From an uncultured Chlorobiaceae bacterium (GTDB lineage: Bacteria; Bacteroidota; Ignavibacteria; UBA10030; SZUA-254): a DNA stretch of 64,000 nucleotides. Below, piece after piece: positions 5,411 to 54,181 of this stretch. Under the pieces are notes generated by a model. The model was given only the letters and a program-made list of their open reading frames with translations. It made no database searches and was not told where the DNA came from. Within the stretch, counting starts at the first letter, position 1, and the number at the start of each line of letters is the position of its first letter. Made by a program: the position numbers and the translations under genes. Where the stretch lies: assembly GCA_964596065.1 (NCBI GenBank), contig CAZQSM010000004.1:6566-70565 (forward strand). Reading direction: 5' to 3'.

Positions 5411-7741
5411 TTATCGTATAACAGCGAAGGTCCCGATCTGGGTTCCGAAATCCGATTCGACGGAAAACACGTAGACACCGGAGGCGATGACCCGTCCGCT
5501 TTCGCTCAGCATGTCCCACTCCTCCTGGCCGCGGGGCCTCCCCGGTTCCGTGCGGCCGCCGTCGTCGTGGCGGATGGTGGCGACGATGTCGCCGGTGAGG
5601 CTGAAGATACGGATCACCGCGACGGGCGGGAGGTGGATGAACCAGATCGTGCGTTTCCATTCGTTCCAGTCGATCGACCGTCCCTCCCACCCACCCGACT
5701 CGAAGGTGTAATTGCCGTCCACCCTGTAGGGGTTCGGCACCACGATCGTTTTTCCCGCCGATGACGACGGCGCGAACGGCAGCTGCACGAGCGTCGCGTT
5801 CCGGCCGATCGCCGATTCGAGGGGTTCGGTGTAGAGCGTGTCGGTCCTGAACGAACCGGGGTTGTCGGGGAGCGGGATGACGTTCACGGTCACACCCGGG
5901 ATGCCGAACGACGTGACGGCGTACCAGTATTTTTTCCCGTGAAGGAGGTTCGAATCGGTGAATGAATACTCGAGCCCGGTCCCGAACTCGAACCCGAGGT
6001 CGTCGTCGACGTCGTACTGCCTGAGGAGGCTGAACGACGCCGGATCGAATTCCGGCGACTCGCTCCGCCAGAGGCGGAACCCCTCGAAGATCCTGCCGCC
6101 GCTCACGCGGCCGGCCGGGGGGTCGGCCCGCCGCCAGTGCGTGTCGGGCAGCGACGAGAGAAAGGCGCTGGAGTCGTCCCAGGCGGAGAGGGGATCGGGA
6201 TCGGCCGCTCCCGGGCGCCAGCTCCAGTCGAGCCGGACGAGGACCGGCCCCTCCCCGACGGCGAGCGGCGGGGAGGGGGGAACGACCGGCAGCCTGTAGC
6301 CCGACGCGTAGAGCGAGTAGGCGGCGCGCGCGTTCGCCATCAGCGAGTTCGGTCCGATCTCGATACCGTCGCCCGAAATCAGCGCCACGGCGACGGTAAG
6401 CGAGTCGCCGGGGGCCACCGTTTCAAACGGCCCGAACGCCAGGAGGAATTGTGAGTCGGAACCCGGGGTCTGGGGTTCGTCGGGTTTGATCCTGCCGCTG
6501 GACATCAGCCGGTAGTGTTCGTCATCGGTCCCGGGGTTGTCTTCGAACCTGTTCCAGTTGAACGTGTACCGGAGCAGGTTGAGCGGCTTCGGGGTCCCGA
6601 GCACGACGACCCCGACCGGCGTGGCCCCGCGGTCATAGACATTGTGGGCGTACCCCGTCCTGAGCTCCGGGATGTAGGCGGAATATTTTCTCGTCGCGAT
6701 GTCGGGCAGGTTCACGTTTCCCAGGAGCGGATCGACGAAAAAGCCGATGTAGAGGCTGTCGAGGGTCTTCGTCCCGGCGTTCACGATGACGTACTCCAGC
6801 GGGAGGATCGGTTGCCGGAACAGGTTCTGCCAGGCGTACGATTTCTGCACCACCCGGAGGCCGAGCGGGACATGGCCCGGTACGAGGGGGTCCGTGAAGA
6901 CGTCCGAGTACACCATCGTCACGTCGCGTTCCGAGACGGCCCCGAAATCCTCGTCCACCCCCGGTTCCCCCGCGTCGCCGAACCCGTTCAGTTCGGTGTA
7001 CCGGTACACGTCGTTCTGCCGGGGATAGACGCCGGCCGCGTCGGGTCGGCAGACGTCGCGCATCGCGGGCGAGTAGTTGTCGTGGGCCGGGTCGGGGTTC
7101 CGGGCCGCGTCAAATCCGCCGCCGCACCCCACCTCGAGCGAATCGGGGACGCCGTCGGAACCGACGTCGTGCAGGTCGGGCCGCCAGTCGCCGTCGTTGT
7201 CGCGGCCGTCAGGCTGGTCTTCATCGATCCGGCCGTCGCCGTCGTCGTCGAATCCGGCCAGGTTCGGCTGGCCCTGCTGGAGCACTCCCGTAACGAAGAA
7301 GGTGTCCCTCGGGGTCTGGTACCCGTAGAGTTCGTGCTGGACCCCCGTTTCACCCCAGTTGTACGCCTTCGTGACTGCGTGGATCTTCGCCGGGGCCGAC
7401 GGCGTCCCGGTGTCGACGATCGCCCCGATCCAGATGCCCGCGCCGTAGAGGTGCTCGACGCGCGAACCGATCGGGTACTCCATCCCGATCCCGTCGGGAG
7501 GGAGAAAATTATCGAAGGCCCCCTGCCCGATGGTTCCGTTGGCCCCGATCCAGGCCTTCAGGTGGAACCCCTGGCTGATCTGCAGGTCCCCCACCGCCCC
7601 CGTCCCCGAGGGGAGCGGCGCGACGGCGTGGCGGCCGCCACCCCCGCCCGGCGACGACCGGGCGGGAGCGACCGATGCGACGATCCAGAGGATGAGCGCC
7701 GCCGAGACGGCACGAGGGTCACAACCTGCCGCCGTCATCAT
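5411..7741 (-). CDS. secreted Asp-rich calcium-binding-repeat protein with T9SS-type C-terminal sorting domain
   Basis: N-terminal signal peptide. Thrombospondin-type-3-like runs (DDDGDGRIDEDQPDGRDNDGDWRPD). C-terminal ~90 aa (NPYRV...VIRIFSLTGDIVATI...GVYVFSVES...FAVIR) resemble a Por/T9SS CTD beta-sandwich. Confidence 0.5.
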   Translation of the reverse strand: MMTAAGCDPRAVSAALILWIVASVAPARSSPGGGGGRHAVAPLPSGTGAVGDLQISQGFHLKAWIGANGTIGQGAFDNFLPPDGIGMEYPIGSRVEHLYGAGIWIGAIVDTGTPSAPAKIHAVTKAYNWGETGVQHELYGYQTPRDTFFVTGVLQQGQPNLAGFDDDGDGRIDEDQPDGRDNDGDWRPDLHDVGSDGVPDSLEVGCGGGFDAARNPDPAHDNYSPAMRDVCRPDAAGVYPRQNDVYRYTELNGFGDAGEPGVDEDFGAVSERDVTMVYSDVFTDPLVPGHVPLGLRVVQKSYAWQNLFRQPILPLEYVIVNAGTKTLDSLYIGFFVDPLLGNVNLPDIATRKYSAYIPELRTGYAHNVYDRGATPVGVVVLGTPKPLNLLRYTFNWNRFEDNPGTDDEHYRLMSSGRIKPDEPQTPGSDSQFLLAFGPFETVAPGDSLTVAVALISGDGIEIGPNSLMANARAAYSLYASGYRLPVVPPSPPLAVGEGPVLVRLDWSWRPGAADPDPLSAWDDSSAFLSSLPDTHWRRADPPAGRVSGGRIFEGFRLWRSESPEFDPASFSLLRQYDVDDDLGFEFGTGLEYSFTDSNLLHGKKYWYAVTSFGIPGVTVNVIPLPDNPGSFRTDTLYTEPLESAIGRNATLVQLPFAPSSSAGKTIVVPNPYRVDGNYTFESGGWEGRSIDWNEWKRTIWFIHLPPVAVIRIFSLTGDIVATIRHDDGGRTEPGRPRGQEEWDMLSESGRVIASGVYVFSVESDFGTQIGTFAVIR

Positions 7742-12173: not shown

Positions 12174-13478
12174 TCAATCCCCGGACGACCGCGACGCGCC
12201 GTGCGCGGTGAGCGCCCTCTGGAGGAGCGTCACGGGATGGATGACCTCCACCGCCGACCCCGCCTCGAGCAGGCCCCGTTGGATCTGGAGGTGGCATCCC
12301 GGGTTTCCCGTCACGACGGTCCCGGCCCCGCACCCGAGGATGTTCGCGATCTTCCGCCGGAGCAGTTCGTCGGCATCGTCGGGCCGGATGAGGTTGTAGA
12401 TGCCGGCGCTCCCGCAGCAGCGCGAGGCGTCGGGGAGTTCGACGAACCGCACGCCCGGGATCGTTTGGATAAGCGCCCGGGGTTGTTTCGACACGCCCTG
12501 GCCGTGGACCAGGTGGCACGCCTCGTGGTAGGTGACCGACGCCGCCACCGACCCGCCGGACGCACCGATTCCCCGGGCGTGGAGGAATTCCGACACGTCC
12601 GCGACCGTCGCCGAAAATCGGGCGGCCCGGTCCGCCATCGCCGGATCGTCCGCGAACAGGCGCCCGTACCCCTTCATGAAGGAGCCGCAGCCGGCGGCGT
12701 TCACGACGACCGCGTCCAACCCGTCAGGAAAGAGGCCGATCGTGTCCGCGGCGAGCTCTCGGGCCCGGGTGTCATCGCCGTTGTGGCCGTGGAGTGAACC
12801 GCAGCAGAATTGCCCCCGCGGAACGACCACGTCGAACCCGGAGCGCCTCAGGAGGTCCGCGGTACCGGAGTGGACCGAGGGGAACGTCTCATTCATCACG
12901 CAGCCCGTGAAGAGCCCCGTCCGGCCGGCCGGCGCGCCGCGGCCCCGCAGGAGGTCGGGCACCGCGGAAAGGTAGGAGCGGTCGGCGACGTCGGGGAGCG
13001 ACAGGACGATCCGGCGGATGGCGTCCGGGAAGACGTTCAGGATTCCGGAGCGTTCAACCGCCTCCCTCAGCCCCGACCGGCGGTAGCCCCGCATCAACCG
13101 GGCGAAGAGCCCGAAGCCGGCCGCAGACCCGAAAATGACCCGGAGGAGGACAAATTTCCTGAACCGGAGAGTGAACGGTTCGAGCTTCCGGTCGCGGACG
13201 ATGCCGCGCGCCATCTCCACGATTTCTCCGTACCGGACCCCCGCCGGGCAGGCTGGCTCGCACGCCCGGCAGTCGAGGCAGAAATTCATCTCGTCGGCGA
13301 ACGCCCGTCCCGGCACCAGCGAACCATCGAGCACCGACCGCACGAGGCGGATCCTCCCGCGGGGGGACGAGGCCTCGTCGAGCGTCATCTCGTAGGTGGG
13401 GCACGAGGGGAGGCAGAGACCGCAGTGGAGGCAGGTGTTGAGCACGGCGTCGATATGTTCCCGGCCCGGTCCCCTCAC
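12174..13478 (-). CDS. glcF: glycolate oxidase iron-sulfur subunit GlcF-like (Fe-S)-binding protein
   Basis: Two 4Fe-4S ferredoxin motifs (CLHCGLCLPSCP, CLDCRACEPACP). Two CCG cysteine-rich domains (QFCCGS, RCCGSAG). Confidence 0.75.
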   Translation of the reverse strand: MRGPGREHIDAVLNTCLHCGLCLPSCPTYEMTLDEASSPRGRIRLVRSVLDGSLVPGRAFADEMNFCLDCRACEPACPAGVRYGEIVEMARGIVRDRKLEPFTLRFRKFVLLRVIFGSAAGFGLFARLMRGYRRSGLREAVERSGILNVFPDAIRRIVLSLPDVADRSYLSAVPDLLRGRGAPAGRTGLFTGCVMNETFPSVHSGTADLLRRSGFDVVVPRGQFCCGSLHGHNGDDTRARELAADTIGLFPDGLDAVVVNAAGCGSFMKGYGRLFADDPAMADRAARFSATVADVSEFLHARGIGASGGSVAASVTYHEACHLVHGQGVSKQPRALIQTIPGVRFVELPDASRCCGSAGIYNLIRPDDADELLRRKIANILGCGAGTVVTGNPGCHLQIQRGLLEAGSAVEVIHPVTLLQRALTAHGASRSSGD

Positions 13479-13479
13479 C

Positions 13480-14148
13480 TCAGGCGCGCCTCCCGAGCAG
13501 CGGCAGAAGCGCGGCCCCCGCGACGAAGCCCCCGATATGGGCCCACCACGCGACCCCTCCGGCGTCGGCCCCGATCTGCAGCGCGAGGAGCCCGCTCCCG
13601 ATCTGCATCAGGAACCAGAGCCCGAGAAAGACGAACGCGGGGAGTTCGATCAGCTGGAAAAAGACGAAGATCGGGATGAGCGTCAGTACCCTCGCGCGCG
13701 GGAAGAGGATGACGTAGGCCCCCAGCACCCCGGCGATGGCGCCGCTCGCCCCCACCATCGGGACGACCGAGGTCGGTTCGATGTACACCTGCGTCGCCGC
13801 GGCCGCGGCGCCCGTCATCAGGTAGAACAGGACGAATCGGCCGTGCCCGAACCGGTCCTCGATGTTGTCCCCGAAGACGTAGAGAAAGACCATGTTGCCC
13901 AGGAGGTGCATCCATCCCCCGTGGAGAAACATCGAGGTGAAGAACGAGAGGTAGGCGACCGGGTCGTCCGCGTAGGTGTCCAGCGCTTCGCTCACGCGAG
14001 AGGGAACCACGCCCAGCGACGCGAAGAGCCGTCCGAGATCCTCCCCGAGCGAAAGTTCGAAGAGAAAGACCGCGGCGTTCAGGCCGATCAGCGCATAGAC
14101 GACGTACGGGACCGAACGGGACGGGTTGGTGTCTCTCAGGGGGATCAT
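13480..14148 (-). CDS. rhomboid family intramembrane serine protease
   Basis: Six predicted TM segments. Catalytic GASGAIAG serine motif and His in AHIGGF. 222 aa. Confidence 0.75.
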   Translation of the reverse strand: MIPLRDTNPSRSVPYVVYALIGLNAAVFLFELSLGEDLGRLFASLGVVPSRVSEALDTYADDPVAYLSFFTSMFLHGGWMHLLGNMVFLYVFGDNIEDRFGHGRFVLFYLMTGAAAAATQVYIEPTSVVPMVGASGAIAGVLGAYVILFPRARVLTLIPIFVFFQLIELPAFVFLGLWFLMQIGSGLLALQIGADAGGVAWWAHIGGFVAGAALLPLLGRRA

Positions 14149-14157: not shown

Positions 14158-14814
14158 TCAGCGGTCGAGGAGCGGGGCGAACCACGCCATCATGTCGCCG
14201 AGGCTCTCCTCGTTGATCTGATGCCCCATGTCGTATTCGCGGTAGGTGACGACTGCGCCGTGAGATTCCAGCAGCTCCTTCGCCCGCCTGCTGTAGGCGA
14301 ACGGGATCACGGGGTCGTAAATGCCGTGGGCGACGAAGAAGGGCTTCCCCTTCACTCCCTCCCACCGGAACGTGAGCCCGGCATCCTCGGGCACGTACCC
14401 GCTGTTCGCGATCACGCCGGCGAGCAGTTCCGGCCGGGTGAGCGCGACCGCGAGGGACATGATCGATCCCATGCTGAATCCCCCGCAGTAGAGCCTGCCC
14501 GGATCGATGCCATGGCGTTCGACCGCTTCGGCGATGAACGCCAGCAGCGTGTCGTAACTCGACCGGAACATCGCGGCGTCCGGCCTGCCGATCTCCTCCA
14601 GGTCGTACCAGGTGTACCCGCCCCCGTTCGCGAACGGGTGCGGCGCCCGGGGCGCGATGATAAGCAGCCGGTCGTCGAAGTACTCGGAGAGGCCGAGCAG
14701 GTCGTCTTCGTCGGCGCCCCGGCCGTGGAGGAGGATCAGCGCCGGCGGTTTGCCGGGGCCGCTCCTCCTGGGCTGGAGGAATTTATAGACAAGGGAACGT
14801 TGTTCGCGGCTCAC
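14158..14814 (-). CDS. alpha/beta hydrolase (phospholipase/carboxylesterase family)
   Basis: LILLHGRGADEDDL and GFSMGS nucleophile elbow. C-terminal His (MGHQI). Confidence 0.7.
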   Translation of the reverse strand: MSREQRSLVYKFLQPRRSGPGKPPALILLHGRGADEDDLLGLSEYFDDRLLIIAPRAPHPFANGGGYTWYDLEEIGRPDAAMFRSSYDTLLAFIAEAVERHGIDPGRLYCGGFSMGSIMSLAVALTRPELLAGVIANSGYVPEDAGLTFRWEGVKGKPFFVAHGIYDPVIPFAYSRRAKELLESHGAVVTYREYDMGHQINEESLGDMMAWFAPLLDR

Positions 14815-14818: not shown

Positions 14819-16273
14819 TCATACCCACGCCACGTCTTCGAATTTCCGTATCTGCTCGCGGGAGCTCGGCATCCGCCCCTCGCACCGCGGTTCGCAGTCG
14901 AGGATCTTCCCGGGGTTGAGGATGAGATTCGGGTCGAGCGCCTCCTTCAGCTTTCGCATCATCATCATCGAGGGGGACCCCACCATTTTTTCAAGCAACG
15001 GTTTCTTGAACAGGCCGACGCCGTGCTCGCCGGTGATCGTCCCGCCGAGGGCGATCGCCGCCTCCTCGACCTCCATCACCGTCCTGTGCGCCCTCCGGAA
15101 TTCCCCGGCGTCGCGTTCGTCGGTGAGGTAGTTCGGGTGGAGGTTCCCGTCACCGGCGTGGCCGAAGGTGCCGATCCTGATGTCGTTCCTCCGCCCGATC
15201 TCCCCGATCTTCCGTACAAGGGCGGCCAGCTCGGTCCGCGGGACGGCCACGTCTTCCATGATGGTGGTCGGCCTGACGCGGGCGAGCGAGGTGAACGCCG
15301 ATCGGCGCGCGACCTTCAACCTGTCGGATTCGGCGGCCCCCGAGGCCACCGTCACCGACGAGGCTCCGCACTCCGTGAAAATGGCCGCGATCCTGGCGCT
15401 GTCCCGCCCGACCACCTCCGGATGGCCGTCAGTCTCCGCGAGCAGGAGGGCGCCCGCGTCCGTGGGCAGGCCGAGGCGGGCGTATTCCTCGACGCAGCGG
15501 ATCGTGGTGTTGTCGAGGAATTCGAGCATCGCCGGGAGGATCCGGGCCGACACCACCGCGGAGACGGCGGCCGCCGCCGATTCCATCCGCGGAAACGCCG
15601 CCAGGAGTGTCCGTGAAGCTTCCGGTTTGGGGAGGATCCGGAGGAGGATTTTGGTGATGATGCCGAGCGTGCCCTCGGACCCGACGAGCACGTCCCGCAG
15701 ATTGTAGCCGGCCACGTCCTTCGCCGACTTCCCCCCCGTCCAGAGGATTTCGCCCGTCGGGAGGACCACTTCGAGCCCCATCACGTAGTTCTTCGTGACC
15801 CCGTATTTGAGCCCCCGGAGCCCCCCTGAGTTCTCGGCGACGTTCCCCCCGATGGTGGAGATCGCCGCGCTCCCGGGATCGGGCGGATAGAGGAAGCCGA
15901 GGGCATCGACCTCACGCTGCAGCTTCGCGGTGATCACGCCGGGTTCGACGGTGACGGTCTGGTTGTCGGCGTCGATTTCGAGGATCCGGTTCCGGTGGGC
16001 CATCAGGACGACGACCGAGCCTTTCACCGGCAGGGCCCCCCCGCTCAGTCCTGTCCCGGAGCCGCGGGGAACGAGCGGCGTCCCGGTCTCGTTGGCGAGC
16101 CTGACGATGGAGGAGATTTCGGCCGGCGAGTTCGGCCTGACGACGCAGAGCGGGAGCTGCGGAGGCAGGGCGGTCGCGTCGTACGAATGGGCGACGAGCG
16201 CCTCCGGCGAATCGAACACGTTGTCGTGCCCGACGATTTCTCCCAGGCGGCGTGCGATCGTGCGCGAGGTCAT
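14819..16273 (-). CDS. glcD: FAD-linked oxidase, glycolate oxidase subunit GlcD-like
   Basis: FAD_binding_4 N-terminus (VVRPNSPAEISSIVRLANETGTPLVPRGSGTGLSGG) and FAD-oxidase C-terminal domain. 484 aa. Confidence 0.8.
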   Translation of the reverse strand: MTSRTIARRLGEIVGHDNVFDSPEALVAHSYDATALPPQLPLCVVRPNSPAEISSIVRLANETGTPLVPRGSGTGLSGGALPVKGSVVVLMAHRNRILEIDADNQTVTVEPGVITAKLQREVDALGFLYPPDPGSAAISTIGGNVAENSGGLRGLKYGVTKNYVMGLEVVLPTGEILWTGGKSAKDVAGYNLRDVLVGSEGTLGIITKILLRILPKPEASRTLLAAFPRMESAAAAVSAVVSARILPAMLEFLDNTTIRCVEEYARLGLPTDAGALLLAETDGHPEVVGRDSARIAAIFTECGASSVTVASGAAESDRLKVARRSAFTSLARVRPTTIMEDVAVPRTELAALVRKIGEIGRRNDIRIGTFGHAGDGNLHPNYLTDERDAGEFRRAHRTVMEVEEAAIALGGTITGEHGVGLFKKPLLEKMVGSPSMMMMRKLKEALDPNLILNPGKILDCEPRCEGRMPSSREQIRKFEDVAWV

Positions 16274-17454: not shown

Positions 17455-18606
17455 CTATTTGAGGACATTCAGCTTCTTCACGTTGACGTATGCGCCGTAG
17501 ACGATCCGGCAGAGATAGACGCCGCTCGGGAGGCCGGCGGCGTCAAAGGTCGCCTCGTACGATCCCGGGCTCAATTCGTCGTCGACGAGCAGCGCCGCTT
17601 CCCGTCCGATCAGATCGTAGACCCTGAGGGACACGCGCCCGGTCGTCGGAATCATGAACGGGATCACCGTTGAGGGATTGAACGGGTTCGGATAGTTCTG
17701 GGAAAGGGTGAACCGCTCCGGCGCGGTCGGCGAGGTCTGCCGCACGCCGGTGGCGGCACCGACGTTCCGGCTGAGCGTCAGCGTGGAGATCTCGGCGATG
17801 CCCCCGGCGTATCCCGTGTCCGCCTGTTCCGGTGAGACGACCGTCCCGTCCCCCGTGATGAAGGTGACCTGGACCGATTTATCGCGGCCCGCGAATGAAT
17901 TTCCGGCATAATATTCATACACCTCCGTTCCGGTGGTGCGCAGGGCCGGCAGGAGGATCGTCTTCCTCGCCCCGGGGCTCGCGACCGCCTCGGGCAGGAC
18001 GATCTCCCCCCAGCCGTCGCACTCCACGGTGGTCGTCGTGACGGTAAAATCGCCCCCCGCCGAATCGGAGTAGAGGGTATCGATGCCGGTCCTGGACGTT
18101 CCGATCGTCAGCGGGAGGGGCATCACCAGGCGCATCGGGAGGTACCGTTCCACGATGATCGTGTCGATGAACGGAAGCCAGAACTGGCGGGAGTACCGTC
18201 CGAGCAGGTACAATCCGTCAGCCCGGAGGAGTGAGTAGGTAACCTGCGAAATTTCCGCGCCACTGTCGGGTTGCCAGACGTAGGGCAGACAGAGGTTCGC
18301 GTTCGGAAATTCCTCCGCGCCGGGCTGTCCGGCGGGCGCCCGGTAGGTCATCGACGCCGAATCCCTGAAATCCGGCGTGGGAAATCCGCTGAGATCGAAC
18401 GTCTGCTCCGACGGGGCGGCCTGGCCGAGATCGACCATCGGGTAGGGGAAATAGGTGGCATGGTACGACATCCGCTCGCCGTTGAGATAGATGCTCACGT
18501 CGGTCTGGTTGATGGTGATCTGGGCGTCCGCGGGTGACACGGGCAGGAGCGACGCGGCGAGGATCAGGACGACCGGTACCAATGTTCTCGTCGGCATTTC
18601 CTTCAA
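17455..18606 (-). CDS. secreted protein with T9SS C-terminal sorting domain
   Basis: Signal peptide MKEMPTRTLVPVVLILAASLLPVSPADAQ. C-terminus LSQNYPNPFNPSTVIPFMIP...SGVYLCRIVYGAYVNVKKLNVLK matches the Por_Secre_tail consensus. Confidence 0.65.
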   Translation of the reverse strand: MKEMPTRTLVPVVLILAASLLPVSPADAQITINQTDVSIYLNGERMSYHATYFPYPMVDLGQAAPSEQTFDLSGFPTPDFRDSASMTYRAPAGQPGAEEFPNANLCLPYVWQPDSGAEISQVTYSLLRADGLYLLGRYSRQFWLPFIDTIIVERYLPMRLVMPLPLTIGTSRTGIDTLYSDSAGGDFTVTTTTVECDGWGEIVLPEAVASPGARKTILLPALRTTGTEVYEYYAGNSFAGRDKSVQVTFITGDGTVVSPEQADTGYAGGIAEISTLTLSRNVGAATGVRQTSPTAPERFTLSQNYPNPFNPSTVIPFMIPTTGRVSLRVYDLIGREAALLVDDELSPGSYEATFDAAGLPSGVYLCRIVYGAYVNVKKLNVLK

Positions 18607-18712
18607 TCTACCGGATGGTGAGTCACCGCAATCACGCGCGGAGGTTCCCGCAGGGACCCGGAAGTATAGGAAAGAAGGGCGTGAAAATCAAACACCGGGA
18701 CGACGCCCCGTG

Positions 18713-19744
18713 TCAGGCGGGATATGATCCCCCCTGCGACGGGCGAGCCGCGTCGGGGGACGCGGACGCCTCCGCGACACCCGAGGGATGTTCGTGGTGG
18801 CCGTGGAGACAGTTCCGGCAGGTCGACCGCGAATCGAGGAAGGTCGTCGAGTGTTGCCAGATGTCGCGGAAATCGTACCCGGTATCGCGCAGGGTGGCGC
18901 GTTCCCCGCCGCTGCCGCCGCAGGGCCGGACCCGGCCCTCCTCGTCGATGAACGCAAACGACTTGCCGCCGAGGCAGGAATAGTCCCAGGATCCCCCGGA
19001 GTGCGCCGTCCGGCCATACCTGGAGCTGTTCGGGATGAATTTGACGCACTGGGGGGAGATGATCATCGAAGAGGGGCTGTACTCCTTCATCGTGGCGAAC
19101 CGCCCGATGAACTCGTCCACGCCGCGCCCGTTGCGCGCCCCGGCGGGGCCGCCCTGGCCGAAGCGCAGGTGGCAGTAGAGTCCGCGCACGGACCGCCGGA
19201 CAGCGTAATCGTGGAGAATCGCCAGCATCCTGATGTCGGGACGGGTGGCGGTGAAGACCACGTGCGACTCGTAACCATGCGACCCGAGACGGTCGAGCGC
19301 CGCTTCAAGCGCCGCGAACTGCGGAGCGTCTTCCAGGCGCCCGCCCTCCAGCCCGTCGGCCGGGTCACCGATCTTCACCCTGAAGATCCGCTCCCCGAAC
19401 CGGGAATATTTGACCACGATCTCCTCGGTGAGTTCCTCCGGTGCGGCCTCCACGATCATTTTGAGGCCGAGCGCCCGGCCGTAATCGAGGATCTCCATGA
19501 GCCGCGGATAGCGGTGCAGGACCCCGTCCCCCGTCAGTACGACGATCGGCTTCGCGGTCCTGGCGATCGAGTCGATCACCAGCATGCACTCGGTCGTGTT
19601 GAGCGGCTCGGCCCTCTGACCGGCGCGTTTCCCTCTCGGGGGTTCGTGGTCCAGGGGGGCGATCTGCCAGATGATGATGCGGGGAAGTTCCGGGGCCGCC
19701 GCGGTGGGACGTTTCATGCCGGCGGGGGGTGACGGATAGTCCAT
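18713..19744 (-). CDS. radical-SAM-fold / SPASM-domain homolog lacking the CxxxCxxC cluster motif
   Basis: The middle region aligns with the radical SAM core (IVVLTGDGVLHRYPRLMEILDYGRALGLKMIVE resembles the GGEPLL...region of AnSME-type enzymes). C-terminal CVKF...CLGGKSFAFIDEEGRVRPCG...CRNCLHGHH is SPASM/twitch-like. No CxxxCxxC in this or any other frame. Strong GC3 bias supports real coding. Confidence 0.5.
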   Translation of the reverse strand: MDYPSPPAGMKRPTAAAPELPRIIIWQIAPLDHEPPRGKRAGQRAEPLNTTECMLVIDSIARTAKPIVVLTGDGVLHRYPRLMEILDYGRALGLKMIVEAAPEELTEEIVVKYSRFGERIFRVKIGDPADGLEGGRLEDAPQFAALEAALDRLGSHGYESHVVFTATRPDIRMLAILHDYAVRRSVRGLYCHLRFGQGGPAGARNGRGVDEFIGRFATMKEYSPSSMIISPQCVKFIPNSSRYGRTAHSGGSWDYSCLGGKSFAFIDEEGRVRPCGGSGGERATLRDTGYDFRDIWQHSTTFLDSRSTCRNCLHGHHEHPSGVAEASASPDAARPSQGGSYPA

Positions 19745-21317: not shown

Positions 21318-21935
21318 ATGGCCTTGCTCCAGGACGAACCAACCATCTCCCGCGGAACGCTCCTGCTGGCGGGGATCCCTTCATTCATCCTCGCCGTGGC
21401 GATCTCCCTCCTCTCCCATCAGCAGGCCCACCGCCTCGGCGAGAAGAGCTTCTGCGGTGACCGGGGGGCGGCCGTCATCCCCGCGGCGTCGATGCTGAAC
21501 CTCGAGACGCCCCCGGGGGACTGCGGATTGTCGGCGCTCACGGGACAGATCTGGACCTTTGGCCTCGCGATCGTTTCGTTCGCGCTGCTCCTCCGTTTCC
21601 CGAGGAACCTCTTCCTCATGTCGATGGCATTCGTCAACGCGACCGCCCGGCTGCCGGAGGCGATCACCCTCTTCCTCCAGTACCTGATCAACAGCCAGGC
21701 CTCGCTCCGCGTCGACGAATCGGTTTCCCTCTCCCTGATGGGACTGACCGACCCGACGATCCCCACCGTGATCATGTGTTTCTATTCGATCCTCCTCCTC
21801 TTCTTCTCGATCATCGTGGTCCACGATGTCAGGGCCGTCCGGTACAAGTGGCCGATTGCCCTTGGGCTCTTCCTCGCCACCGGGTTCATCGAGAGCGGCA
21901 TCGTCCGGCTCCTCGGGCCCGGGTCCGGGGCCTGA
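21318..21935 (+). CDS. hypothetical integral membrane protein
   Basis: Five or six hydrophobic helices, no recognizable motif. The only plus-strand gene in a 20-kb minus-strand stretch. 205 aa. Confidence 0.45.
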   Translation: MALLQDEPTISRGTLLLAGIPSFILAVAISLLSHQQAHRLGEKSFCGDRGAAVIPAASMLNLETPPGDCGLSALTGQIWTFGLAIVSFALLLRFPRNLFLMSMAFVNATARLPEAITLFLQYLINSQASLRVDESVSLSLMGLTDPTIPTVIMCFYSILLLFFSIIVVHDVRAVRYKWPIALGLFLATGFIESGIVRLLGPGSGA

Positions 21936-21954: not shown

Positions 21955-23294
21955 TCACGACGTCCTGACGAGGTCGGCCGCCCTGTACCCGCTGATCACG
22001 GCGCCTTCGATCGTGGCTGGGAGCCCGGTATCCGTCCAGTCCCCCGCGAGATAGAACCGTTCCACCGCCGTCGCGGTCCCCGGGCGCGCGCGTTCCGTCT
22101 CCGGCGTCGCCGAGAACGTGGCCCGTTTCTCCTTGATGACCACGGAGTGGGTCACCTCCGCGCCACCGGCCGCCGGGAAGACCTCCCGAAGCTCCCGCGC
22201 GGCGGTCGCGACGAGCGCCGCCGCCGGATCGCCGATGACGTCGTACGCCGCGCTGATGACGCAGGCGACGCACGCCCCCGCCCCCTTTTCCTCCGGGAGG
22301 ATCGATCGGCGGTTGAACGCCCACTGCACCGTTTTTCCGATGAGGCCCACGAGGTCCCCCTCCATGAACTCCCTGTCGAACCAGATGTTGACCGACACGA
22401 TCGGCGAGTGGGCGATCGAGCGCGCGGCGGCCAGCAGGCCCGCCGTCCGTTCCCCTTGCGGGACGAAACCCGGGAGGGCCCACGGCGGAACGCCGGAAAT
22501 GACGGCGCCTCCCCTCAGCGTGGTCCCGTCCCTGAGGCGGATGCCGGCGGCCCGACCGTCCTCCAGGACCAGCCCCGACGCGGCGGCGTTCACCATCACG
22601 ACCGACCCGCGCGATTCGAGGAACCTGAGGGCGCCCGCGACGTAGAGTTCCGACTGCCCGATGGTCGGGATGAGCATGCGGCTGTCCGCATCGTCGCCGA
22701 GGAACGCCATCCTGAGGGCGCGGGCGAAGAGGAGCGCCGATGCGGCGCCCGGACGCTCGTTCATCACCGAGAGGGCGATCGGGTCCCAGAAGCATCTCCT
22801 GGAACGCTCGCTCTGACCCGACCCGTCGAGCCATTCCCCGACCGTGGCGCCGGCGATCGACCGTTCCTTTTCCTCCGACCAGGAGGCGAGCCATCTCCCC
22901 GCCCTGAGCAGCCCGGCTTTCTCCCCGACACCGAGAAGGCCGTAGGTCAGGATCCCTGCGGTCAGGTCGAGGGGGGCCGGGAGCCGGGGGAGGCGCAGCG
23001 TCGCGAACCCCTCCACGGGATGGTGGAACGGCAGCGTCAGCGACGGCTCGGCCCGGAGGTACCCGCCGGTCCCGATCGTCGAGAGGTAGTGGAGGAGTGA
23101 GCGATACGAACCGAGCAGGACATGCTGTCCGTTGTCGACCGTTTCGCCGGTGGTACGGTCGCGGTAGGAGTAGCATCGTCCCCCGGGCCTCGGAGACTGT
23201 TCCACGAGCGCGACGCGGCCGCCCGCCGCCGAGATCCTCACCGCGGCGGCGAGGCCGCTCAGTCCGCCGCCGACGATCACCGCGTCGTGGATCA
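21955..23294 (-). CDS. hpnE: hydroxysqualene dehydroxylase (squalene-associated FAD-dependent desaturase)
   Basis: ATG at 23294 gives MIHDAVIVGGGLSGLAAA..E, a Rossmann FAD motif. Amine-oxidase fold throughout. 4-nt overlap with hpnD. The long upstream extension in the ORF track is spurious. Confidence 0.75.
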
Positions 23295-24146
23295 TCGTCC
23301 CAGGAACCTTTCGAGCAACCCCTGCCGGAGGGCGATCCCGAGCTGGGCCGGCTTCGAAAGCCGGATGGTCCTCCCGAGGACGTCGTACCCCGAGTCCCGG
23401 ATCTTCCGGAGCGTGCCGTGGTAGACCGCTTCCATGATCCTCGCCGGGCGCATCGCCGGCAGGTCGTCGTCCGCGAGGGCGGAACGGGCCGCGGCGTAGA
23501 AGTCGTCCGCACGCGACGCCTGCGTGGCCAGCAGCCGGCGGAAGCGGTCTGAATCGCGGCGGGAGAGGATCTCCTCCTCGGTGCAGCCGGCCGCCCTGAG
23601 GTCGTCGAGCGGGATGTAGATCCGGCCCATCGCCGCGTCGGGGCCGACGTCCCTGATGATGTTGGTGAGCTGGAGCGCGATGCCAAGGTTCGAGGCGTAT
23701 GCCTCCGTTCCCGGGTTCCGGCGGCCGAAGATATCGATGCAGATGAGCCCGACGGTGGAGGCCACCAGGTGGCAATATTCCCGCAGGGCCTCGAAGGTGT
23801 CGTACCGCGCGACGGAGAGATCCATTCCCACGCCGCGAACGAGGTCGTGAAAAAGCCCCCGGGGGATCGACCAGGTCCGGGCGACGGCCGCGACATCATT
23901 CAACAGCGGTTCGGACGAACCCGCCCCGAAGGCGGCGGTCAACTCCCCGCTCCAGTGTTGCAGTCGGGCGCGTTTTCCCCCGACGTTCCCGGGTTCGTCG
24001 ACGATGTCGTCCGTCGCCCGGCAGAACGCGTAGACCGTCCCGAGCGCCCGGCGGCGGTCGGACCGGAGGAAAGGGAACGAGTAACGGAAACTGGTCCCGA
24101 CGGGCGGGGACCCTCCGGCGGCGAGGAGGCTCACGTCAGGTCCCAC
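23292..24146 (-). CDS. hpnD: presqualene diphosphate synthase
   Basis: Squalene/phytoene synthase fold with Asp-rich motifs (YAFCRATDDIVDE; NIIRDVGPDAAMGRIYIP). Confidence 0.75.
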   Translation of the reverse strand: MGPDVSLLAAGGSPPVGTSFRYSFPFLRSDRRRALGTVYAFCRATDDIVDEPGNVGGKRARLQHWSGELTAAFGAGSSEPLLNDVAAVARTWSIPRGLFHDLVRGVGMDLSVARYDTFEALREYCHLVASTVGLICIDIFGRRNPGTEAYASNLGIALQLTNIIRDVGPDAAMGRIYIPLDDLRAAGCTEEEILSRRDSDRFRRLLATQASRADDFYAAARSALADDDLPAMRPARIMEAVYHGTLRKIRDSGYDVLGRTIRLSKPAQLGIALRQGLLERFLGR

Positions 24147-25057
24147 GGTTTTTTCCTCCGTCCGGGCCGGCCAAACCGGTCGAGGTCGCGCATGAAGAAC
24201 CCCCGGAGGAGAATCCCGAGCTTCCGCCGCGTTCCCAGCGTCGGGCGGGAATCGAAGACTTCATAACCGGAACGGTCCAGCTCGCGGAGGATCGTCATCC
24301 CCCCGAGCCAGACGAGCCTCAGTTCGAGGGCGATCTCCCTCTCCGCCAGGGCGGGAAGCGCGACGCCCGCCCGGAATTTCTCCCTCGCCACCGAGACCAG
24401 CGACCGCATGAGCGCGCGGAACCGGTCGTTCACCACCCTCCCCTTCCAGTCGGCCTCGCTGTACCCGTGCCGCTCCATCTCGGCACGCGGGAGATAGAGC
24501 CGGTCGTGTCCGAGGTCGACGCCGACGTCCTGCCAGAAATTTGTCAGCTGGAGCGCGGTGCAGATTTCGTCGGAGAGGAGGGAAAGCGCTTCGTCGCGGT
24601 GGCCGAAGATGTGGAGGACGATCCGGCCGACCGGATTCGCCGAACGTGAGCAGTAGTCGAGGAGGTCCGGGAGGGTTTCGTACCGTCGCCGCACCACGTC
24701 CTGCCGGAACGCCGAGAGGAGGTCGGCGAGGTATTGCCGCGGAATGGAGTTCCTCTTCACGGTCTCGGCGAGGGCGACGAAGACCGGGTGATCGGCCTCC
24801 CCCTCGTAACACCGGTCGAGCTTGCGCTCCCAGTCGTCGAGGAGTTCCAGCCTGGCCGGCGCGGGCAGGGAGCCCTCGTCGGCGAAATCGTCGGCGCACC
24901 GGCTGAACGCGTAGATCGCCTGGACGTAGGGCCGTTTTTCCTCCGGCAGGAAGAGCGAGGCCACGGGAAAATTTTCGTAATGGGCCGCGGTCAGCCTCGC
25001 GCAATATTCGAATGCGGCGTCGGAAGCGCGGGCGTCGATCACCGTCGACGGGTCCAT
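24131..25057 (-). CDS. hpnC: hydroxysqualene synthase
   Basis: Second squalene-synthase-family paralog (YAFSRCADDFADE; NFWQDVGVDLGHDRLYLP) directly upstream of hpnD. Confidence 0.75.
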   Translation of the reverse strand: MDPSTVIDARASDAAFEYCARLTAAHYENFPVASLFLPEEKRPYVQAIYAFSRCADDFADEGSLPAPARLELLDDWERKLDRCYEGEADHPVFVALAETVKRNSIPRQYLADLLSAFRQDVVRRRYETLPDLLDYCSRSANPVGRIVLHIFGHRDEALSLLSDEICTALQLTNFWQDVGVDLGHDRLYLPRAEMERHGYSEADWKGRVVNDRFRALMRSLVSVAREKFRAGVALPALAEREIALELRLVWLGGMTILRELDRSGYEVFDSRPTLGTRRKLGILLRGFFMRDLDRFGRPGRRKKPWDLT

Positions 25058-29970: not shown

Positions 29971-30044
29971 GGCGGAGTAGCTCAGTTGGTTAGAGCAACG
30001 GAATCATAATCCGTGTGTCGGGGGTTCGACTCCCTCCTCCGCTA
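29971..30044 (+). tRNA. tRNA with CAU anticodon (elongator tRNA-Met or tRNA-Ile2/lysidine)
   Basis: Cloverleaf: acceptor GGCGGAG/CTCCGCT. D-arm AGCTCAGTTGGTTAGAGC. Anticodon stem ACGGA/TCCGT with loop ATCATAA. T-arm GGGGGTTCGACTCCCTC. No encoded CCA. Confidence 0.8.
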
Positions 30045-30105
30045 CAGAAGCACCACCTCCTTCAGACATCTGTTCTGGGGGTTTTTTTCACGCGGGCAGG
30101 CAGCC

Positions 30106-34766: not shown

Positions 34767-35512
34767 CGGGCGCTGAAGCGTTCGAGGAACGCCACTTCCC
34801 CCGGCGAGAGACTCCCGGTCCCGCCGGTGTCGAGCTTCATCATGATCCTCCGGTACTCCTCCCTGTTGACCTCGTGCATCCCGTCGGTGGCGATCGCCCG
34901 CCACCGCTGCAGTGCCACGGGATCGACCACCGGACGCCCGGCTGCCGGCATCGTGACCCTGACCTCCCGCCCCGGCGCCGCCGACCGGATATAGAGATAC
35001 CCCCCCAGGAACCCTCCGAGATGGGCGAAATGCGCGATGCCGTCCCCGCCCCCGCCGGCGCCGCCGAACACCGAGAGGGCCGCCATTCCCGCGACCAGCC
35101 AGCGGGCCTCGACGGGCAGGATCCCCCAGATGTAGATCTGTGAGCGGGGCCAGAACCAGGTGAATCCGATCAGAACGCCGTACACCGCGGCCGACGCCCC
35201 GACGATCGCAGCGTCGAACGAAAAGAGGAACGAGAGCGCCGCGCCGGAGAGCCCGCTGACGAAGTAGAGCCAGAGGAAGCGCCGCTCACCCAGTTCCGCC
35301 TCGAGCCGAGGTCCGAAGAAATAGAGCCCCAGCATGTTGAACAGGATGTGCCCGAGTCCCGCGTGGAGGAACATGTAGGTGACTGCGGTCCAGGGCCGCA
35401 GAAGCGCGTAGGCGGGGACGAACATCAGCTCGCGGTCGATCCCGGGGACCATCGCCGTGACCAGGAACATCACCGCGTTCGCGGCGATGATCCGCATGAC
35501 CCAGGGCGTCAT
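34763..35512 (-). CDS. rhomboid family intramembrane serine protease (second copy)
   Basis: TM helices. GASAAVYG serine motif and FAHLGGFLGG His motif. 4-nt overlaps on both sides. Confidence 0.7.
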   Translation of the reverse strand: MTPWVMRIIAANAVMFLVTAMVPGIDRELMFVPAYALLRPWTAVTYMFLHAGLGHILFNMLGLYFFGPRLEAELGERRFLWLYFVSGLSGAALSFLFSFDAAIVGASAAVYGVLIGFTWFWPRSQIYIWGILPVEARWLVAGMAALSVFGGAGGGGDGIAHFAHLGGFLGGYLYIRSAAPGREVRVTMPAAGRPVVDPVALQRWRAIATDGMHEVNREEYRRIMMKLDTGGTGSLSPGEVAFLERFSAR

Positions 35513-37527
35513 CGGCCCGTCCCGGTCTCTCCGACGGCCTCGAGGATGATCTCGGCGATGTCCTTCACCGCGACCCGTTCCGAGGCCTCCTTCTCCTTGA
35601 CGCCGTCGGTCATCATGGTCATGCAGAAGGGACAGGCCGTGCCGATCACGTCGGGCGCGAGCCGGAGCGCCTCCTCGGTCCGTTCGACGTTGACCCTCTT
35701 CCCCGTGCTCTCCTCCATGAACATTCTCGCTCCCCCCGCCCCGCAGCAGAACCCCCGGTCGCGGTTCCGGGGCATCTCCGACAATTCGACCCCGGGGACC
35801 GACGTGAGGACGTTCCTCGGTTCATCGTAGACCTGGTTGTACCGGCCCAGGTAGCAGGAATCGTGGTAGGTGATCTTCGCCCGCTGTTCGCCCGTCAGGC
35901 GGAGCTTTCCCGATTCGATCAGGCCGAGGAGGAACCCGCTGTGGTGGACCACTTCGTAGCGCCCGCCCAGCTGGGGGTACTCGTTCAGGAGGATGTTGAG
36001 GCAGTGCGGGCAGGTCGTGACGATCTTCGTCACGCCGTGGCCGTTCAGGACCCGGACGTTTTCCGCCATCAACGTCTGCGCGAGGTAGTCGTTCCCGGCC
36101 CTGCGCGCCGGGTCGCCGGTGCATTTCTCCTCCGGCCCGAGGATGGCGAAATCGACGCCCGCGATCTTCATGAGCGTGGCGAAGGCCTTCGTCACCTTCG
36201 TGTACCGGGCGTCGTACGCCCCGGCGCAGCCCACCCAGAAGAGGATCCGGTCAGCGCCGGCCGGCGCCGCCGCCGACATCAGCGGGATGTCGAGTCCCTC
36301 CGCCCAGTCGCTCCTCGACGAATGGCTGAAGCCCCAGGGGGTGAAATTGCGTTCGAGGTTCTGGAACGTCGCCTGCATCTCCTTCGGGAAGCGGGATTCG
36401 TTCAGGACGAGATGGCGGCGCATGTCGACGATGGCGTCGACGTGCTCGATCTGCACCGGGCACTCCTGGACGCAGGCCATGCAGGTCGTGCACGCCCAGA
36501 GTTCATCCTCGGTGATGTACCCGTCGACGAGCTGCCGGTCGGCCTCCGGGGCCGCGGCGGCGGCGCCGGCCACGAGCCGCGGGGCCTTCTCCACGAGACG
36601 CTGGCGAATGTCGACGATGATCTTCTTCGGTGAGAGCGGCTTTCCCGTGTTCGCGGCGGGGCACACGGCGGTGCAGCGCCCGCATTCCGTGCAGGTATAC
36701 CCGTCGAGGAGCTGCTTCCAGGTCAGGTCTTCGACGTCGGCCGCTCCGTACCTCGGCAGCGTCTCGTCCTGGAGGTCCAGGTTTTTCAGCGTCCCGCGGC
36801 GGCCGAGCTTCGCGAAGTAGACGTTCGGCACGGAAGAGATGACGTGCAGGTGTTTCGAGTAGGGAAGGTAGTTCAGGAACCCGAGGACGAGCGCCACGTG
36901 AAACCACCAGAAGGCGGTGAACCAGGCCGCGGCGTCGCCGCCCTCACCCCCGTCGAACAGCGAGGCCGCCGCGGTCGAAACGAAGCGCGCCTCGTTCGCC
37001 ATCCGCGCGCCGCCCGCGATGTTCGAGCCGTTCTGGCCGAACATCGAGACGATGATCAGCAGGATCCAGAGGAGGATCAGCGTCGCGTCGAACCGGGAAT
37101 GCCCACCCACGTCCAGGCGCGCGGGCGGCCTGATGTATCGCCTGAAGAGGGCGAAGATCGTCGAGAGCGCGACGAGGAGCCCGATCAGGTCCTGGAGGAA
37201 GGCCAGCGGAGGGTAGAGCGGGCCGAGGAAACCGAACGTGAACCCCGGCGCGATCCCCTCCCCGAACGTCTCGAGGATGGCGCTCAGCAGGATGACGAAC
37301 CCCCAGAAGATGAAGAAGTGGAGGATCCCGGCGAGCGGTTCCCGGAGGAGCTTCGTCTGTCCGAAGGCCACCGTCAGCACGTTCCGGAGCCGTTCGACCG
37401 GACGGTCCGTCCGCCCCTCCTTTCTGCCGATGCGGAGGTACCCCGCGAGCCGGCGCACGTTCAGGGCGAACAAGAGCAGCGAACCCGCCAGGACTGCGAT
37501 GAAGATGAGTGATTCGGTTGCGATCAT
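35509..37527 (-). CDS. membrane-anchored (Fe-S)-binding oxidoreductase, HdrD/DsrK/GlpC-like with NarI-like N-terminal TM domain
   Basis: About 230-aa N-terminal multi-TM domain. Two 4Fe-4S motifs (CTECGRCTAVCP, CTTCMACVQECP). Two CCG domains (GFCCGAGG, TCPHC...CPFC). Confidence 0.7.
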   Translation of the reverse strand: MIATESLIFIAVLAGSLLLFALNVRRLAGYLRIGRKEGRTDRPVERLRNVLTVAFGQTKLLREPLAGILHFFIFWGFVILLSAILETFGEGIAPGFTFGFLGPLYPPLAFLQDLIGLLVALSTIFALFRRYIRPPARLDVGGHSRFDATLILLWILLIIVSMFGQNGSNIAGGARMANEARFVSTAAASLFDGGEGGDAAAWFTAFWWFHVALVLGFLNYLPYSKHLHVISSVPNVYFAKLGRRGTLKNLDLQDETLPRYGAADVEDLTWKQLLDGYTCTECGRCTAVCPAANTGKPLSPKKIIVDIRQRLVEKAPRLVAGAAAAAPEADRQLVDGYITEDELWACTTCMACVQECPVQIEHVDAIVDMRRHLVLNESRFPKEMQATFQNLERNFTPWGFSHSSRSDWAEGLDIPLMSAAAPAGADRILFWVGCAGAYDARYTKVTKAFATLMKIAGVDFAILGPEEKCTGDPARRAGNDYLAQTLMAENVRVLNGHGVTKIVTTCPHCLNILLNEYPQLGGRYEVVHHSGFLLGLIESGKLRLTGEQRAKITYHDSCYLGRYNQVYDEPRNVLTSVPGVELSEMPRNRDRGFCCGAGGARMFMEESTGKRVNVERTEEALRLAPDVIGTACPFCMTMMTDGVKEKEASERVAVKDIAEIILEAVGETGTGR

Positions 37528-50768: not shown

Positions 50769-50858
50769 GATCCTGGTGCGTGGACGAGGCGATGATGGTG
50801 GAAATGTTGAAAATAACGATTTCCGGCAGGAGAATCAAAAATACCCCGCCGGCAGGGG

Positions 50859-50890
50859 TAAAAAAAAAGGTTCCCGGTCGCCCGGAAACC
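50859..50890 (-). terminator. intrinsic terminator after rplQ
   Basis: Minus strand: ggtttccgggcgaccgggaacc hairpin followed by ttttttttt, about 30 nt after the rplQ stop. Confidence 0.45.
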
Positions 50891-50919
50891 TCGTCTCACG
50901 CTGACGCTCTCAACGTCCG

Positions 50920-51468
50920 TCAGGACGCGTTTGCTTCCGCGGCCTTCGCCTTCGAAGCGGCGGCGTCCTTCTTTCCGGCCGTTTTTTTCGGGGCCTTCTT
51001 CTCTTTCGCCTCTCCCTTGACCTTCGCGCCGCCTTCGGCGCCGGCGTTCTTTTCCGTCTTCGCCGGCTTGTCCGCCTTCACGACGCCCTGGAAGTCCACC
51101 AGTTCGAGGAGCGCCACCTCGGCGCCGTCGCCCTTCCGCCGCCCGAGCTTGACGATGCGGGTGTAGCCTCCGGGACGGGACGCTGTCTTCGACGCGATCT
51201 CGGTGAACAGCTCCCTCACCGCGTCCTTGTCCTTGATGGTCCTGGCGACCATCCGGCGTGCGTGGACGTTCTTCGCCTTGTCCCCGTCGCCGTGCACGCT
51301 GCGGGCCCGGGTGATCATCTTCTCGACGAACATCCTCGTCTCCTTCGCCTTCGTGACGGTGGTCTTGATTTTCTTGTGCTTGAACAGCGCGCTGCAGAGG
51401 GCCGCCAGCAGCGCCTTCCTGTGGCTTGCGGTGACTCCGAGCTTGCGATGCGATTTTCTGTGTCTCAT
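50920..51468 (-). CDS. rplQ: 50S ribosomal protein L17 with Lys/Ala-rich C-terminal extension
   Basis: MRHRKSHRKLGVTASHRKALL... conserved L17 core (~120 aa) plus a ~60-aa KA-rich tail. Confidence 0.85.
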   Translation of the reverse strand: MRHRKSHRKLGVTASHRKALLAALCSALFKHKKIKTTVTKAKETRMFVEKMITRARSVHGDGDKAKNVHARRMVARTIKDKDAVRELFTEIASKTASRPGGYTRIVKLGRRKGDGAEVALLELVDFQGVVKADKPAKTEKNAGAEGGAKVKGEAKEKKAPKKTAGKKDAAASKAKAAEANAS

Positions 51469-51487
51469 GGGTATGCCGGTTATTCAG

Positions 51488-52477: not shown

Positions 52478-52525
52478 AGTTTCCTACTCCCAGGTTACGT
52501 TTCGAAAATGCGGTTCGTCGGGACT

Positions 52526-53155: not shown

Positions 53156-53188
53156 ACTGTCCTTTGGTTCGTAGAATGCGTTGCTGGT

Positions 53189-53602: not shown

Positions 53603-53638
53603 TGACTGTCCTTGTGTGTGTGGTATCTGCCCTGCCGG

Positions 53639-54022: not shown

Positions 54023-54067
54023 TCCTGGTGTTCCTTTCTGCTTGGGTCTGAAATGGTGGTGGTCTGA

Positions 54068-54181
54068 TCAACCCTGGCGCTGCTTGTGCTTCGGGTTCTT
54101 GCAGATCACCCTCACCACGCCGTTGCGGCGGATGATCTTGCAGTTGTCGCATAATTTTTTTATCGACGAGCGGACCTTCAT
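54068..54181 (-). CDS. rpmJ: 50S ribosomal protein L36 (zinc-ribbon form)
   Basis: Not in the ORF track (37 aa). rc translates to [37 protein letters not shown]. Confidence 0.8.

Follow-up and report, generated by a model that had tools for sequence, protein, structure and literature searches.

The stretch of DNA analysed here (the window) comprises 64,000 nt of contig CAZQSM010000004.1 from an uncultured Chlorobiaceae bacterium, with a GC content of 65.5%. An open reading frame (ORF) at 18713..19744 (-) begins with ATG and encodes a 343-aa product, designated X, which is predicted to be a pseudo radical-SAM (S-adenosylmethionine) protein derived from the heme b synthase AhbD. The genes of this region are placed in the order hpnC, hpnD, hpnE, a gene on the opposite strand for a 205-aa protein of unknown function, tyrS, X, a gene for a protein with a type IX secretion system (T9SS) sorting tail, the 3-deoxy-D-arabino-heptulosonate 7-phosphate (DAHP) synthase gene aroF, and a GlcD-like oxidase gene. 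The strings quoted from X in an earlier note on this DNA, made without database searches, were all found in the product: LPRIIIWQIAPLDHEPPRGK (residues 20-39), SPQCVKF, CLGGKSFAFIDEEGRVRPCG, and CRNCLHGHH. The GC contents at the three codon positions of the X gene were 0.65, 0.52, and 0.85, and the third-position value (GC3) is similar to those of the other window genes (mostly 0.74-0.93), which bears out the genuine coding that the note had read from it. The ratio of nonsynonymous to synonymous substitution rates (dN/dS) was 0.15-0.22 against the close relatives L029/L030 and indicates purifying selection; the comparison values were 0.08-0.10 for tyrS and aroF and 0.28 for the T9SS gene. Together with the homologues described below, these characteristics mark X as a functional, selectively maintained gene.

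The profile searches proposed in the note gave a divided result. A Pfam scan of the X protein yielded zero matches at E<=10, and phmmer against PDB sequences returned nothing meaningful, the best hit (E 0.92) being an unrelated prenyl synthase. X stays below the gathering score of the radical SAM profile PF04055, for which only 7 of 33 relatives reach E<=0.01, and it was unmatched by the SPASM profiles PF13186 and TIGR04085, the former of which matched 12 of the 33 relatives at E<=0.01. Among the NCBIfam models, AhbD (TIGR04545) was matched weakly (2.1e-15, 57 bits vs. an equivalog cutoff of 500), and further weak matches were obtained with TIGR04053 and with NirJ2, the latter over residues 41-308. 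Neither Pfam nor NCBIfam has a model that covers the X family. The fold named in the note, of the radical-SAM/SPASM type, was recovered by structure prediction. The AlphaFold2 (AF2) model, calculated from 33 homologues, had a predicted local distance difference test score (pLDDT) of 77.9 and a predicted template modelling score (pTM) of 0.79, and displayed a half-barrel of alternating strands and helices followed by a C-terminal domain rich in beta-hairpins. The top Foldseek matches of the model in the PDB were all radical SAM enzymes (template modelling score about 0.5), including PqqE (4e-9), SuiB, SkfB, viperin, MoaA, and the anaerobic sulfatase-maturating enzyme anSME. On these grounds, residues 21-227 (19064..19684 (-)) were assigned to the partial (beta/alpha)6 TIM-barrel that characterizes the radical SAM superfamily.

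By sequence comparison, X is a descendant of the radical-SAM/SPASM protein AhbD. Of the known families, TIGR04545 gives each of the 33 aligned X-family members its highest score (best 2.2e-31, far under the cutoff, which none of them reaches), and all of them also match NirJ2; the alignment is full-length, covering family profile positions of about 6-311. The half-barrel and the SPASM-type C-terminal fold of AhbD are predicted in X as well, and the three Cys of X that correspond to the auxiliary cluster I (AuxI) are spaced as in AhbD (PMC10452713). Apart from a protein of a second Cys-less clade (P0072, see below), the nearest proteins outside the family are canonical AhbD-like ones with the C.L.C.HC motif, scoring 314-473 bits on TIGR04545, some of which occur as fusions with the siroheme decarboxylase AhbA/B. 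Unlike AhbD, X has no CX3CX2C, GGE, or auxiliary cluster II (AuxII) motif, and its barrel-lining residues are replaced. The X family retains AuxI and drops AuxII, the reverse of what is found in true AhbDs, where AuxII is always kept and AuxI is lost in some (PMC10452713). Genes ahbA/B/C were found neither among 20 scanned window ORFs (ten flanking and ten others) nor in the approximately 50 homologous loci.

The Cys residues of X are located at positions 53, 191, 233, 257, 275, 309, and 312, and CX3CX2C is absent. A Cys triad between W26 and E52 occurs in none of 76 family sequences, which come from independent assemblies and have intact ORFs, and neither X nor any of these sequences carries CX3CX2C or a variant three-Cys motif of the radical SAM superfamily. 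Alignment with canonical AhbD-like proteins showed that in the family a Cys-free loop, variable in length, takes the place of the AhbD stretch T..C.L.C.HC; in X, this loop comprises residues 28-48 (IAPLDHEPPRGKRAGQRAEPL; 19601..19663 (-)), and the model is of low confidence there (pLDDT <50 at residues 35-37 and 39-42). The missing motif reported in the note is thus a shared property of the orthologs, and a sequencing or assembly artefact is ruled out because all 76 independently assembled sequences are without the triad. Since the ORF includes the segment that aligns with the AhbD triad, the triad was lost by substitution, not truncation. The possibility that the motif is hidden by a frameshift or by truncation of the N-terminus was also considered and rejected; the flanks are in frame, and the 76 sequences concur. 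Residues 71-75 (19520..19534 (-)) align with AhbD TGGEP, but the motif itself is degenerate, reading TGDGV. The family form is TG[D/E/P]x, with G72 present in 70/76 sequences and with variable positions 73 (D/E/P/N) and 74 (R/D/G/H). With both the triad and the GGE motif gone, X would have no means of reductive SAM cleavage and, as the note had argued, would be incapable of canonical radical SAM chemistry.

The C-terminal domain retained a different set of Cys residues. The truncated SPASM (Twitch-like) domain comprises residues 228-312 (18809..19063 (-)) and contains four Cys, each invariant in 76/76 sequences: C233 (19046-19048 (-)), C257 (18974-18976 (-)), C275 (18920-18922 (-)), and C312 (18809-18811 (-)). 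Their columns are invariant across both the X family and the AhbD-like proteins. The AhbD motif is CX20-33CX17CX36-37CX2CX5CX2CX17-35C, and the ligands in the Methanosarcina barkeri enzyme are C223, C256, C274, and C324 for AuxI and C312, C315, C321, and C342 for AuxII (PMC10452713). By alignment and spacing, C233-X23-C257-X17-C275 of X represents the first three AuxI ligands of AhbD, and C312 falls at the position of C321/C324 of M. barkeri AhbD. The AuxI hairpin of SPASM domains, CX9-15GX4C, is present as C257-X12-G270-X4-C275, likewise invariant in 76/76. The second SPASM element, CX2CX5CX2-3C with a distal Cys, is missing: the AhbD CX2CX5 stretch corresponds to a 12-residue gap in X, and the distal Cys is lacking. 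Other Cys are less conserved (C191 in 64/76, C53 in 53/76, C309 in 23/76, and one located seven residues beyond C275 in 40/76). Beyond C312, the family alignment shows no conservation, and the poorly conserved C-terminal tail (residues 313-343, 18716..18808 (-); pLDDT <50 at 315-343) stands in for the distal, AuxII-bearing part of SPASM. The domain is therefore best described as a SPASM domain reduced to a Twitch-like single-site form of AuxI type only; the auxiliary Cys-rich domain recognized in the note is real, but it is not a full SPASM. The suggestion that X is a pseudoenzyme or scaffold with an auxiliary domain fits the retained Cys-rich part, and the parent can now be specified as AhbD. 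In the barrel, the family-invariant residues include P21, W26, and E52, as well as K95, E99, R122, E159, R172, D179, and K220, which have taken the place of the AhbD barrel motifs; R136, H161, and H192 are near-invariant.

A search of 5.8 billion proteins revealed 54 homologues of X at E<=1e-3, the named ones all from metagenome-assembled genomes (MAGs) of Bacteroidota or Ignavibacteriales. A scan with one genome per species gave 23 loci, labelled Ignavibacteria, Ignavibacteriota, or Bacteroidota, with a few Chlorobiaceae MAGs. The family is Ignavibacteria-specific, its MAGs being labelled Ignavibacteria/Bacteroidota. In a profile search of 1.84 billion cluster representatives, full-length members scored 301-458 bits and formed a compact family; after a gap, the next full-length protein, P0072, scored 147 bits. 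No member of the family contains CX3CX2C, and every full-length protein from 140 bits downward has C(N/P)L.C.HC. The 76-sequence alignment, in which identity reaches down to 28%, has 33 columns that are at least 97% identical, and monophyly of the family had 100% bootstrap support in a neighbour-joining (NJ) tree. Public labels for its members include 'MoaA/NifB/PqqE/SkfB family radical SAM enzyme' and even 'AdoMet-dependent heme synthase'. No description of the X family was found in the literature on Cys-less AhbD-like, pseudo-SAM, or stand-alone SPASM proteins.

The flanks of the homologues were examined over +/-10 kb, and 42 loci with enough downstream sequence were informative. In 32 of them, a methionine-gamma-lyase (MGL)-like gene lies directly downstream of X on the same strand, at a hit-to-hit distance of 20-140 nt and with ORF gaps of -38 to +29 nt, 4-nt overlaps included. 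The MGL-like protein (433 aa) is a divergent pyridoxal phosphate (PLP) enzyme of Cys/Met metabolism, with a PF01053 match at 2.9e-91; among the NCBIfam models, methionine gamma-lyase scored best, with 318 bits vs. a cutoff of 550. The pairing persists under several upstream contexts. One comprises malic enzyme, 2-oxoacid:ferredoxin oxidoreductase (OFOR) delta/alpha/beta/gamma subunits, and an 85-aa Cys-containing protein; another comprises alanine dehydrogenase and acetyl-CoA hydrolase, and other arrangements also occur. The pair is commonly followed by feoAB. In the NJ tree, the clade of the window is nested among MGL-linked lineages. According to tblastn, the window contains no OFOR subunits, feoAB, 85-aa protein, or extra radical SAM gene. 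As a separate observation, in six loci (L016:9300-10556, and likewise L018, L019, L020, L040, and L054) the MGL-like gene is followed by a gene for a canonical radical SAM protein of 418 aa with the motif CNLACDGC (PF04055 at 7e-17, no SPASM match, no specific NCBIfam family), forming a triad of pseudo radical SAM, MGL-like, and true radical SAM genes. Small Cys-containing proteins without Pfam or NCBIfam matches are encoded between the oxidoreductase gamma gene and X, for example at L002:7616-7873 and L005:7478-7810; a protein of 85-86 aa is found in most oxidoreductase-linked loci, and a CxxC-rich protein of roughly 110 aa in several.

The gene order of the window is repeated in L001/L007, L006, L009, L010, L029, and L030, whose X proteins are 53-82% identical to that of the window. 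The tyrS gene (PF00579; 19916..21223) is separated from X by 171 nt, one more than the 170 nt given in the note, while the 106-nt spacer on the other side was stated correctly. There, the gene at 17455..18606 (-) encodes a secreted protein whose C-terminal T9SS sorting domain (residues 305-379) was scored above the cutoffs by both PF18962 (29.7 bits, cutoff 27) and TIGR04183 (31.3 bits, cutoff 23), so that its designation as T9SS cargo was correct; Pfam recognized no domain in it other than the sorting tail. Consensus scans placed a terminator-like hairpin, followed by a T-rich tail, immediately behind the X stop codon (18696..18710 (-)) and a sigma-70-like promoter match (9/12) upstream of the T9SS gene (18663..18691 (-)). 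The terminator call comes from the consensus scan alone, as the spacer RNA folds no better than shuffled sequences (z 0.41), and the promoter scan does not cover Bacteroidota-type promoters. The T9SS neighbour is confined to the window clade and occurs in none of the more distant loci; the cargo gene is not judged to be functionally tied to X, and the adjacency is attributed to synteny. Upstream of X by two genes, an hpnC-hpnD-hpnE-type cluster (two SQS_PSY genes and a gene of the flavin adenine dinucleotide (FAD)-dependent amine oxidase family) is located at 21955-25057 (-). The listed 606-aa hpnE ORF is probably over-extended at its 5' end, its homologues having 446-450 aa. Between hpnE and tyrS, the 205-aa ORF at 21318-21935 (+) encodes a predicted membrane protein without a family match, present at the same place in L001, L029, and L030.

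A separate clade of AhbD-like proteins was observed that also lacks CX3CX2C and has a full SPASM motif (P0072, P0201-P0205, and P0319; NCBI name 'SPASM domain-containing protein [Bacteroidota bacterium]', MGD0337711.1). Its genes, designated X', are located at L031:2195-3115, L032:1106-2173, L033:7690-8741, and L034/L035:10001-11050. Like X, these proteins are AhbD-derived, come from Bacteroidota MAGs, and have a similar short loop in place of the triad; P0072 is the top non-family match of the X-family profile. Unlike X, they kept both AuxI and AuxII, and they are about 45% identical to true or annotated heme b synthases and only about 22% to X. The sister grouping of X and the P0072 clade had 32% bootstrap support in the NJ tree. 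X' always lies directly after a gene for an NfnB/GltD-like Fe-S flavoprotein, which is preceded by an NfnA-like DHODB_Fe-S_bind gene where the sequence extends that far, and, in the loci with enough downstream sequence (L031, L032, and L034/L035), directly before hpnC-hpnD-hpnE. X' may be a module that supplies squalene synthesis with electrons. The proximity of hpnCDE to X in the window mirrors this adjacency. A third Cys-less AhbD-like protein, P0134, was found on a 3-kb contig whose context is uninformative.

With modest confidence, we regard X as an AhbD-derived non-radical accessory protein with one AuxI-type Fe-S cluster and the MGL-like gene as its usual partner. The radical-SAM [4Fe-4S] site and the GGE motif of the AhbD ancestor have been lost together with the AuxII Cys, while three AuxI Cys and one further invariant Cys were retained, and the half-barrel has gained a new invariant set of Lys, Arg, Glu, Asp, and His residues. 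The most likely outcome is a single, fully Cys-ligated AuxI-type cluster bound beside a remodelled ligand pocket, so that X might act as a redox or ligand-binding accessory protein, with the MGL-like PLP enzyme as the usual functional partner. In the window clade, X would have been separated from this partner and would now lie between tyrS and the T9SS cargo gene by synteny. In anSME-type crystal structures, AuxI is nearer to the active site and AuxII is a surface-proximal relay. If this layout holds for X, the loss of AuxII with retention of AuxI points to a pocket-proximal role rather than to a simple electron wire. Because the MGL-like gene is often found in an OFOR/feoAB neighbourhood, the data suggest a role in anaerobic sulfur-amino-acid or 2-oxoacid metabolism. 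Several points weigh against this interpretation. The Fe-S cluster is predicted from Cys conservation and spacing only, and the confidence of the model is low around C312 (pLDDT about 52). The MGL link is missing in 10 of the 42 informative loci, which represent three lineages (the window clade, L003/L004, and L014), and tblastn detected no MGL-like gene in the 64-kb window. The ancestral genomic context hinges on an NJ tree whose root falls on a long branch, and the link could be synteny inherited within one class and not function.

Other explanations were weighed against the same data. It is unlikely, though worth considering, that X is a binder, chaperone, or sensor of a tetrapyrrole (heme or Fe-coproporphyrin) that kept the ligand binding of AhbD without catalysis. 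An analogous case of a heme-biosynthesis enzyme turned non-catalytic is the heme chaperone HemW, whose ancestor was the radical SAM protein HemN; HemW, however, retains CX3CX2C and belongs to a different subfamily. The invariant or near-invariant basic residues K95, R122, R136, R172, K220, and R306 could hold propionates, and the closest relatives are AhbDs, whose binding of Fe-coproporphyrin III does not depend on the auxiliary clusters (PMC10452713). Ferrochelatase is present in Ignavibacteriae, which leaves no catalytic need for an AhbD-like protein (PMC8529089). Nevertheless, the barrel half shares only E52, I60, P66, G72, and G117 with AhbD and none of the family-specific invariant charged residues, and no tetrapyrrole genes were found in about 50 X neighbourhoods. 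The feoAB iron uptake genes downstream of X in many loci would suit tetrapyrrole binding, but they are missing from the most divergent loci (alanine dehydrogenase-acetyl-CoA hydrolase-X-MGL) and from the window clade. A partnership with the squalene pathway, for example as an electron carrier for the FAD enzyme HpnE, is less probable still. The proximity of X to hpnC-hpnD-hpnE in the window clade and the nfnA-nfnB-like-X'-hpnC-hpnD-hpnE arrays of the second Cys-less clade (L031, L032, L034/L035) are, by a rough estimate, unlikely to coincide by chance. On the other side, X and hpnE are separated by tyrS and an oppositely oriented gene, the 32 MGL-linked loci have no hpn genes near X, the low bootstrap value leaves the relationship of X and X' weak, and the hpnCDE arrangement inside each clade may be plain synteny.

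That X is still a radical enzyme, by non-canonical cluster ligation (as in ThiC and Dph2) or by functioning in trans with a true radical SAM partner, is very improbable. The invariant E52, E99, E159, and D179 and the near-invariant H161 and H192 are in principle capable of binding a metal as ligands, and the CNLACDGC protein of the six loci could be such a partner; the GGE motif is gone, however, and the extra radical SAM gene is found in a minority of loci. The non-canonical ligation raised in the note is disfavoured because the barrel half has no alternative conserved Cys set: outside the AuxI set, no three Cys are conserved, the best being C191 and C53. The note had also likened X and the T9SS gene to maturase-substrate pairs such as anSME-sulfatase, and a role of X as maturase or scaffold for this cargo now has an even slighter claim. 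The two genes are on the same strand with 106-nt spacing, and their adjacency is kept in L001, L006, L007, L009, and L029, but these loci are close relatives in which the whole region is syntenic, and the 32 more distant loci have the MGL-like gene instead and no T9SS neighbour. The terminator-like and promoter-like signals between the genes, the absence of a recognized cargo domain beyond the sorting tail, and the lack of a catalytic cluster in X also speak against it. Adjacency across lineages and a competent radical SAM cluster, the properties of an anSME-sulfatase-type pair, are both wanting here; the pairing is unsupported given synteny within one clade, its absence in distant loci, the intergenic signals, and the MGL-like neighbour elsewhere. 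Least credible of all is a decaying, pseudogene-like relic without function, to which the loss of all catalytic motifs and the disordered N- and C-terminal tails could point. It is refuted by dN/dS, which for X is comparable to that of neighbouring genes, and by conservation, with 76 intact ORFs down to 28% identity and 33 near-invariant columns.

Pseudo-SAM/SPASM proteins are already catalogued, and X is a further variant, not a new principle. The halobacterial pseudo-SAM/SPASM family TIGR04347 is also a radical-SAM/SPASM-like group of the AhbC/AhbD/NirJ neighbourhood, and we take its members, from the family name, to be without the Cys triad. It is matched weakly by 16 of the 33 X-family members, but X itself scores 11.8 bits (E 0.11) vs. 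a cutoff of 525, belongs to Ignavibacteria/Bacteroidota and not to Halobacteria, and comes from a family that additionally lost AuxII. The Twitch enzymes BtrN, MoaA, and SkfB resemble X in a SPASM domain that is truncated and has three or four Cys for a single auxiliary cluster, and the latter two are among its structural matches; unlike X, they have the radical SAM cluster and the SAM-binding motifs. It is conceivable, though doubtful, that the X family and the P0072/P0319 clade reflect a recurrent route by which AhbD-type enzymes, having lost their SAM cluster, find new use in unrelated pathways as Fe-S modules that work without SAM, either to carry electrons or as subunits that bind a ligand. 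These would be the MGL-like C-S lyase in the case of X and an NfnAB-like flavoprotein with HpnCDE in the other clade. On this doubtful view, a new activity that needs no radical would depend on the AuxI cluster next to the remodelled barrel pocket. If X is the non-radical accessory protein favoured here, it would point to an uncharacterised accessory factor of the MGL-like enzyme in anaerobic Ignavibacteria. X also offers a natural example of stepwise decay from a three-cluster radical SAM/SPASM enzyme to a single AuxI-type site and could serve as a minimal system for studying an isolated AuxI cluster. With automatic labels such as 'radical SAM' or 'heme synthase', Ignavibacteria would be mistakenly credited with radical chemistry or with a heme pathway that depends on siroheme.

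Some other features of the window were recorded. The codon bias of the 776-aa ORF at 5411-7741 (-) is gene-like (GC3 0.87), and Pfam gave no match at 1e-5. Two proteins with Fer4 and CCG domains (GlcF/HdrD-like) are encoded at 12174-13478 (-) and 35509-37527 (-) and look like ordinary Fe-S subunits of glycolate or lactate oxidase type. The former is encoded by the third gene downstream from that of the GlcD-like FAD oxidase (14819-16273), with the small ORFs 13480-14148 and 14158-14814 between them. A housekeeping block at 48249-57877 contains leuS (48249-50768), rpoA (51488-52477), secY (55228-56565), ORFs of ribosomal-protein size, and tRNA-Gln (57806-57877), and tRNA-Met (29971-30045) adjoins tilS and ftsH. 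These housekeeping genes and tRNAs confirm that the window represents a core chromosomal region.

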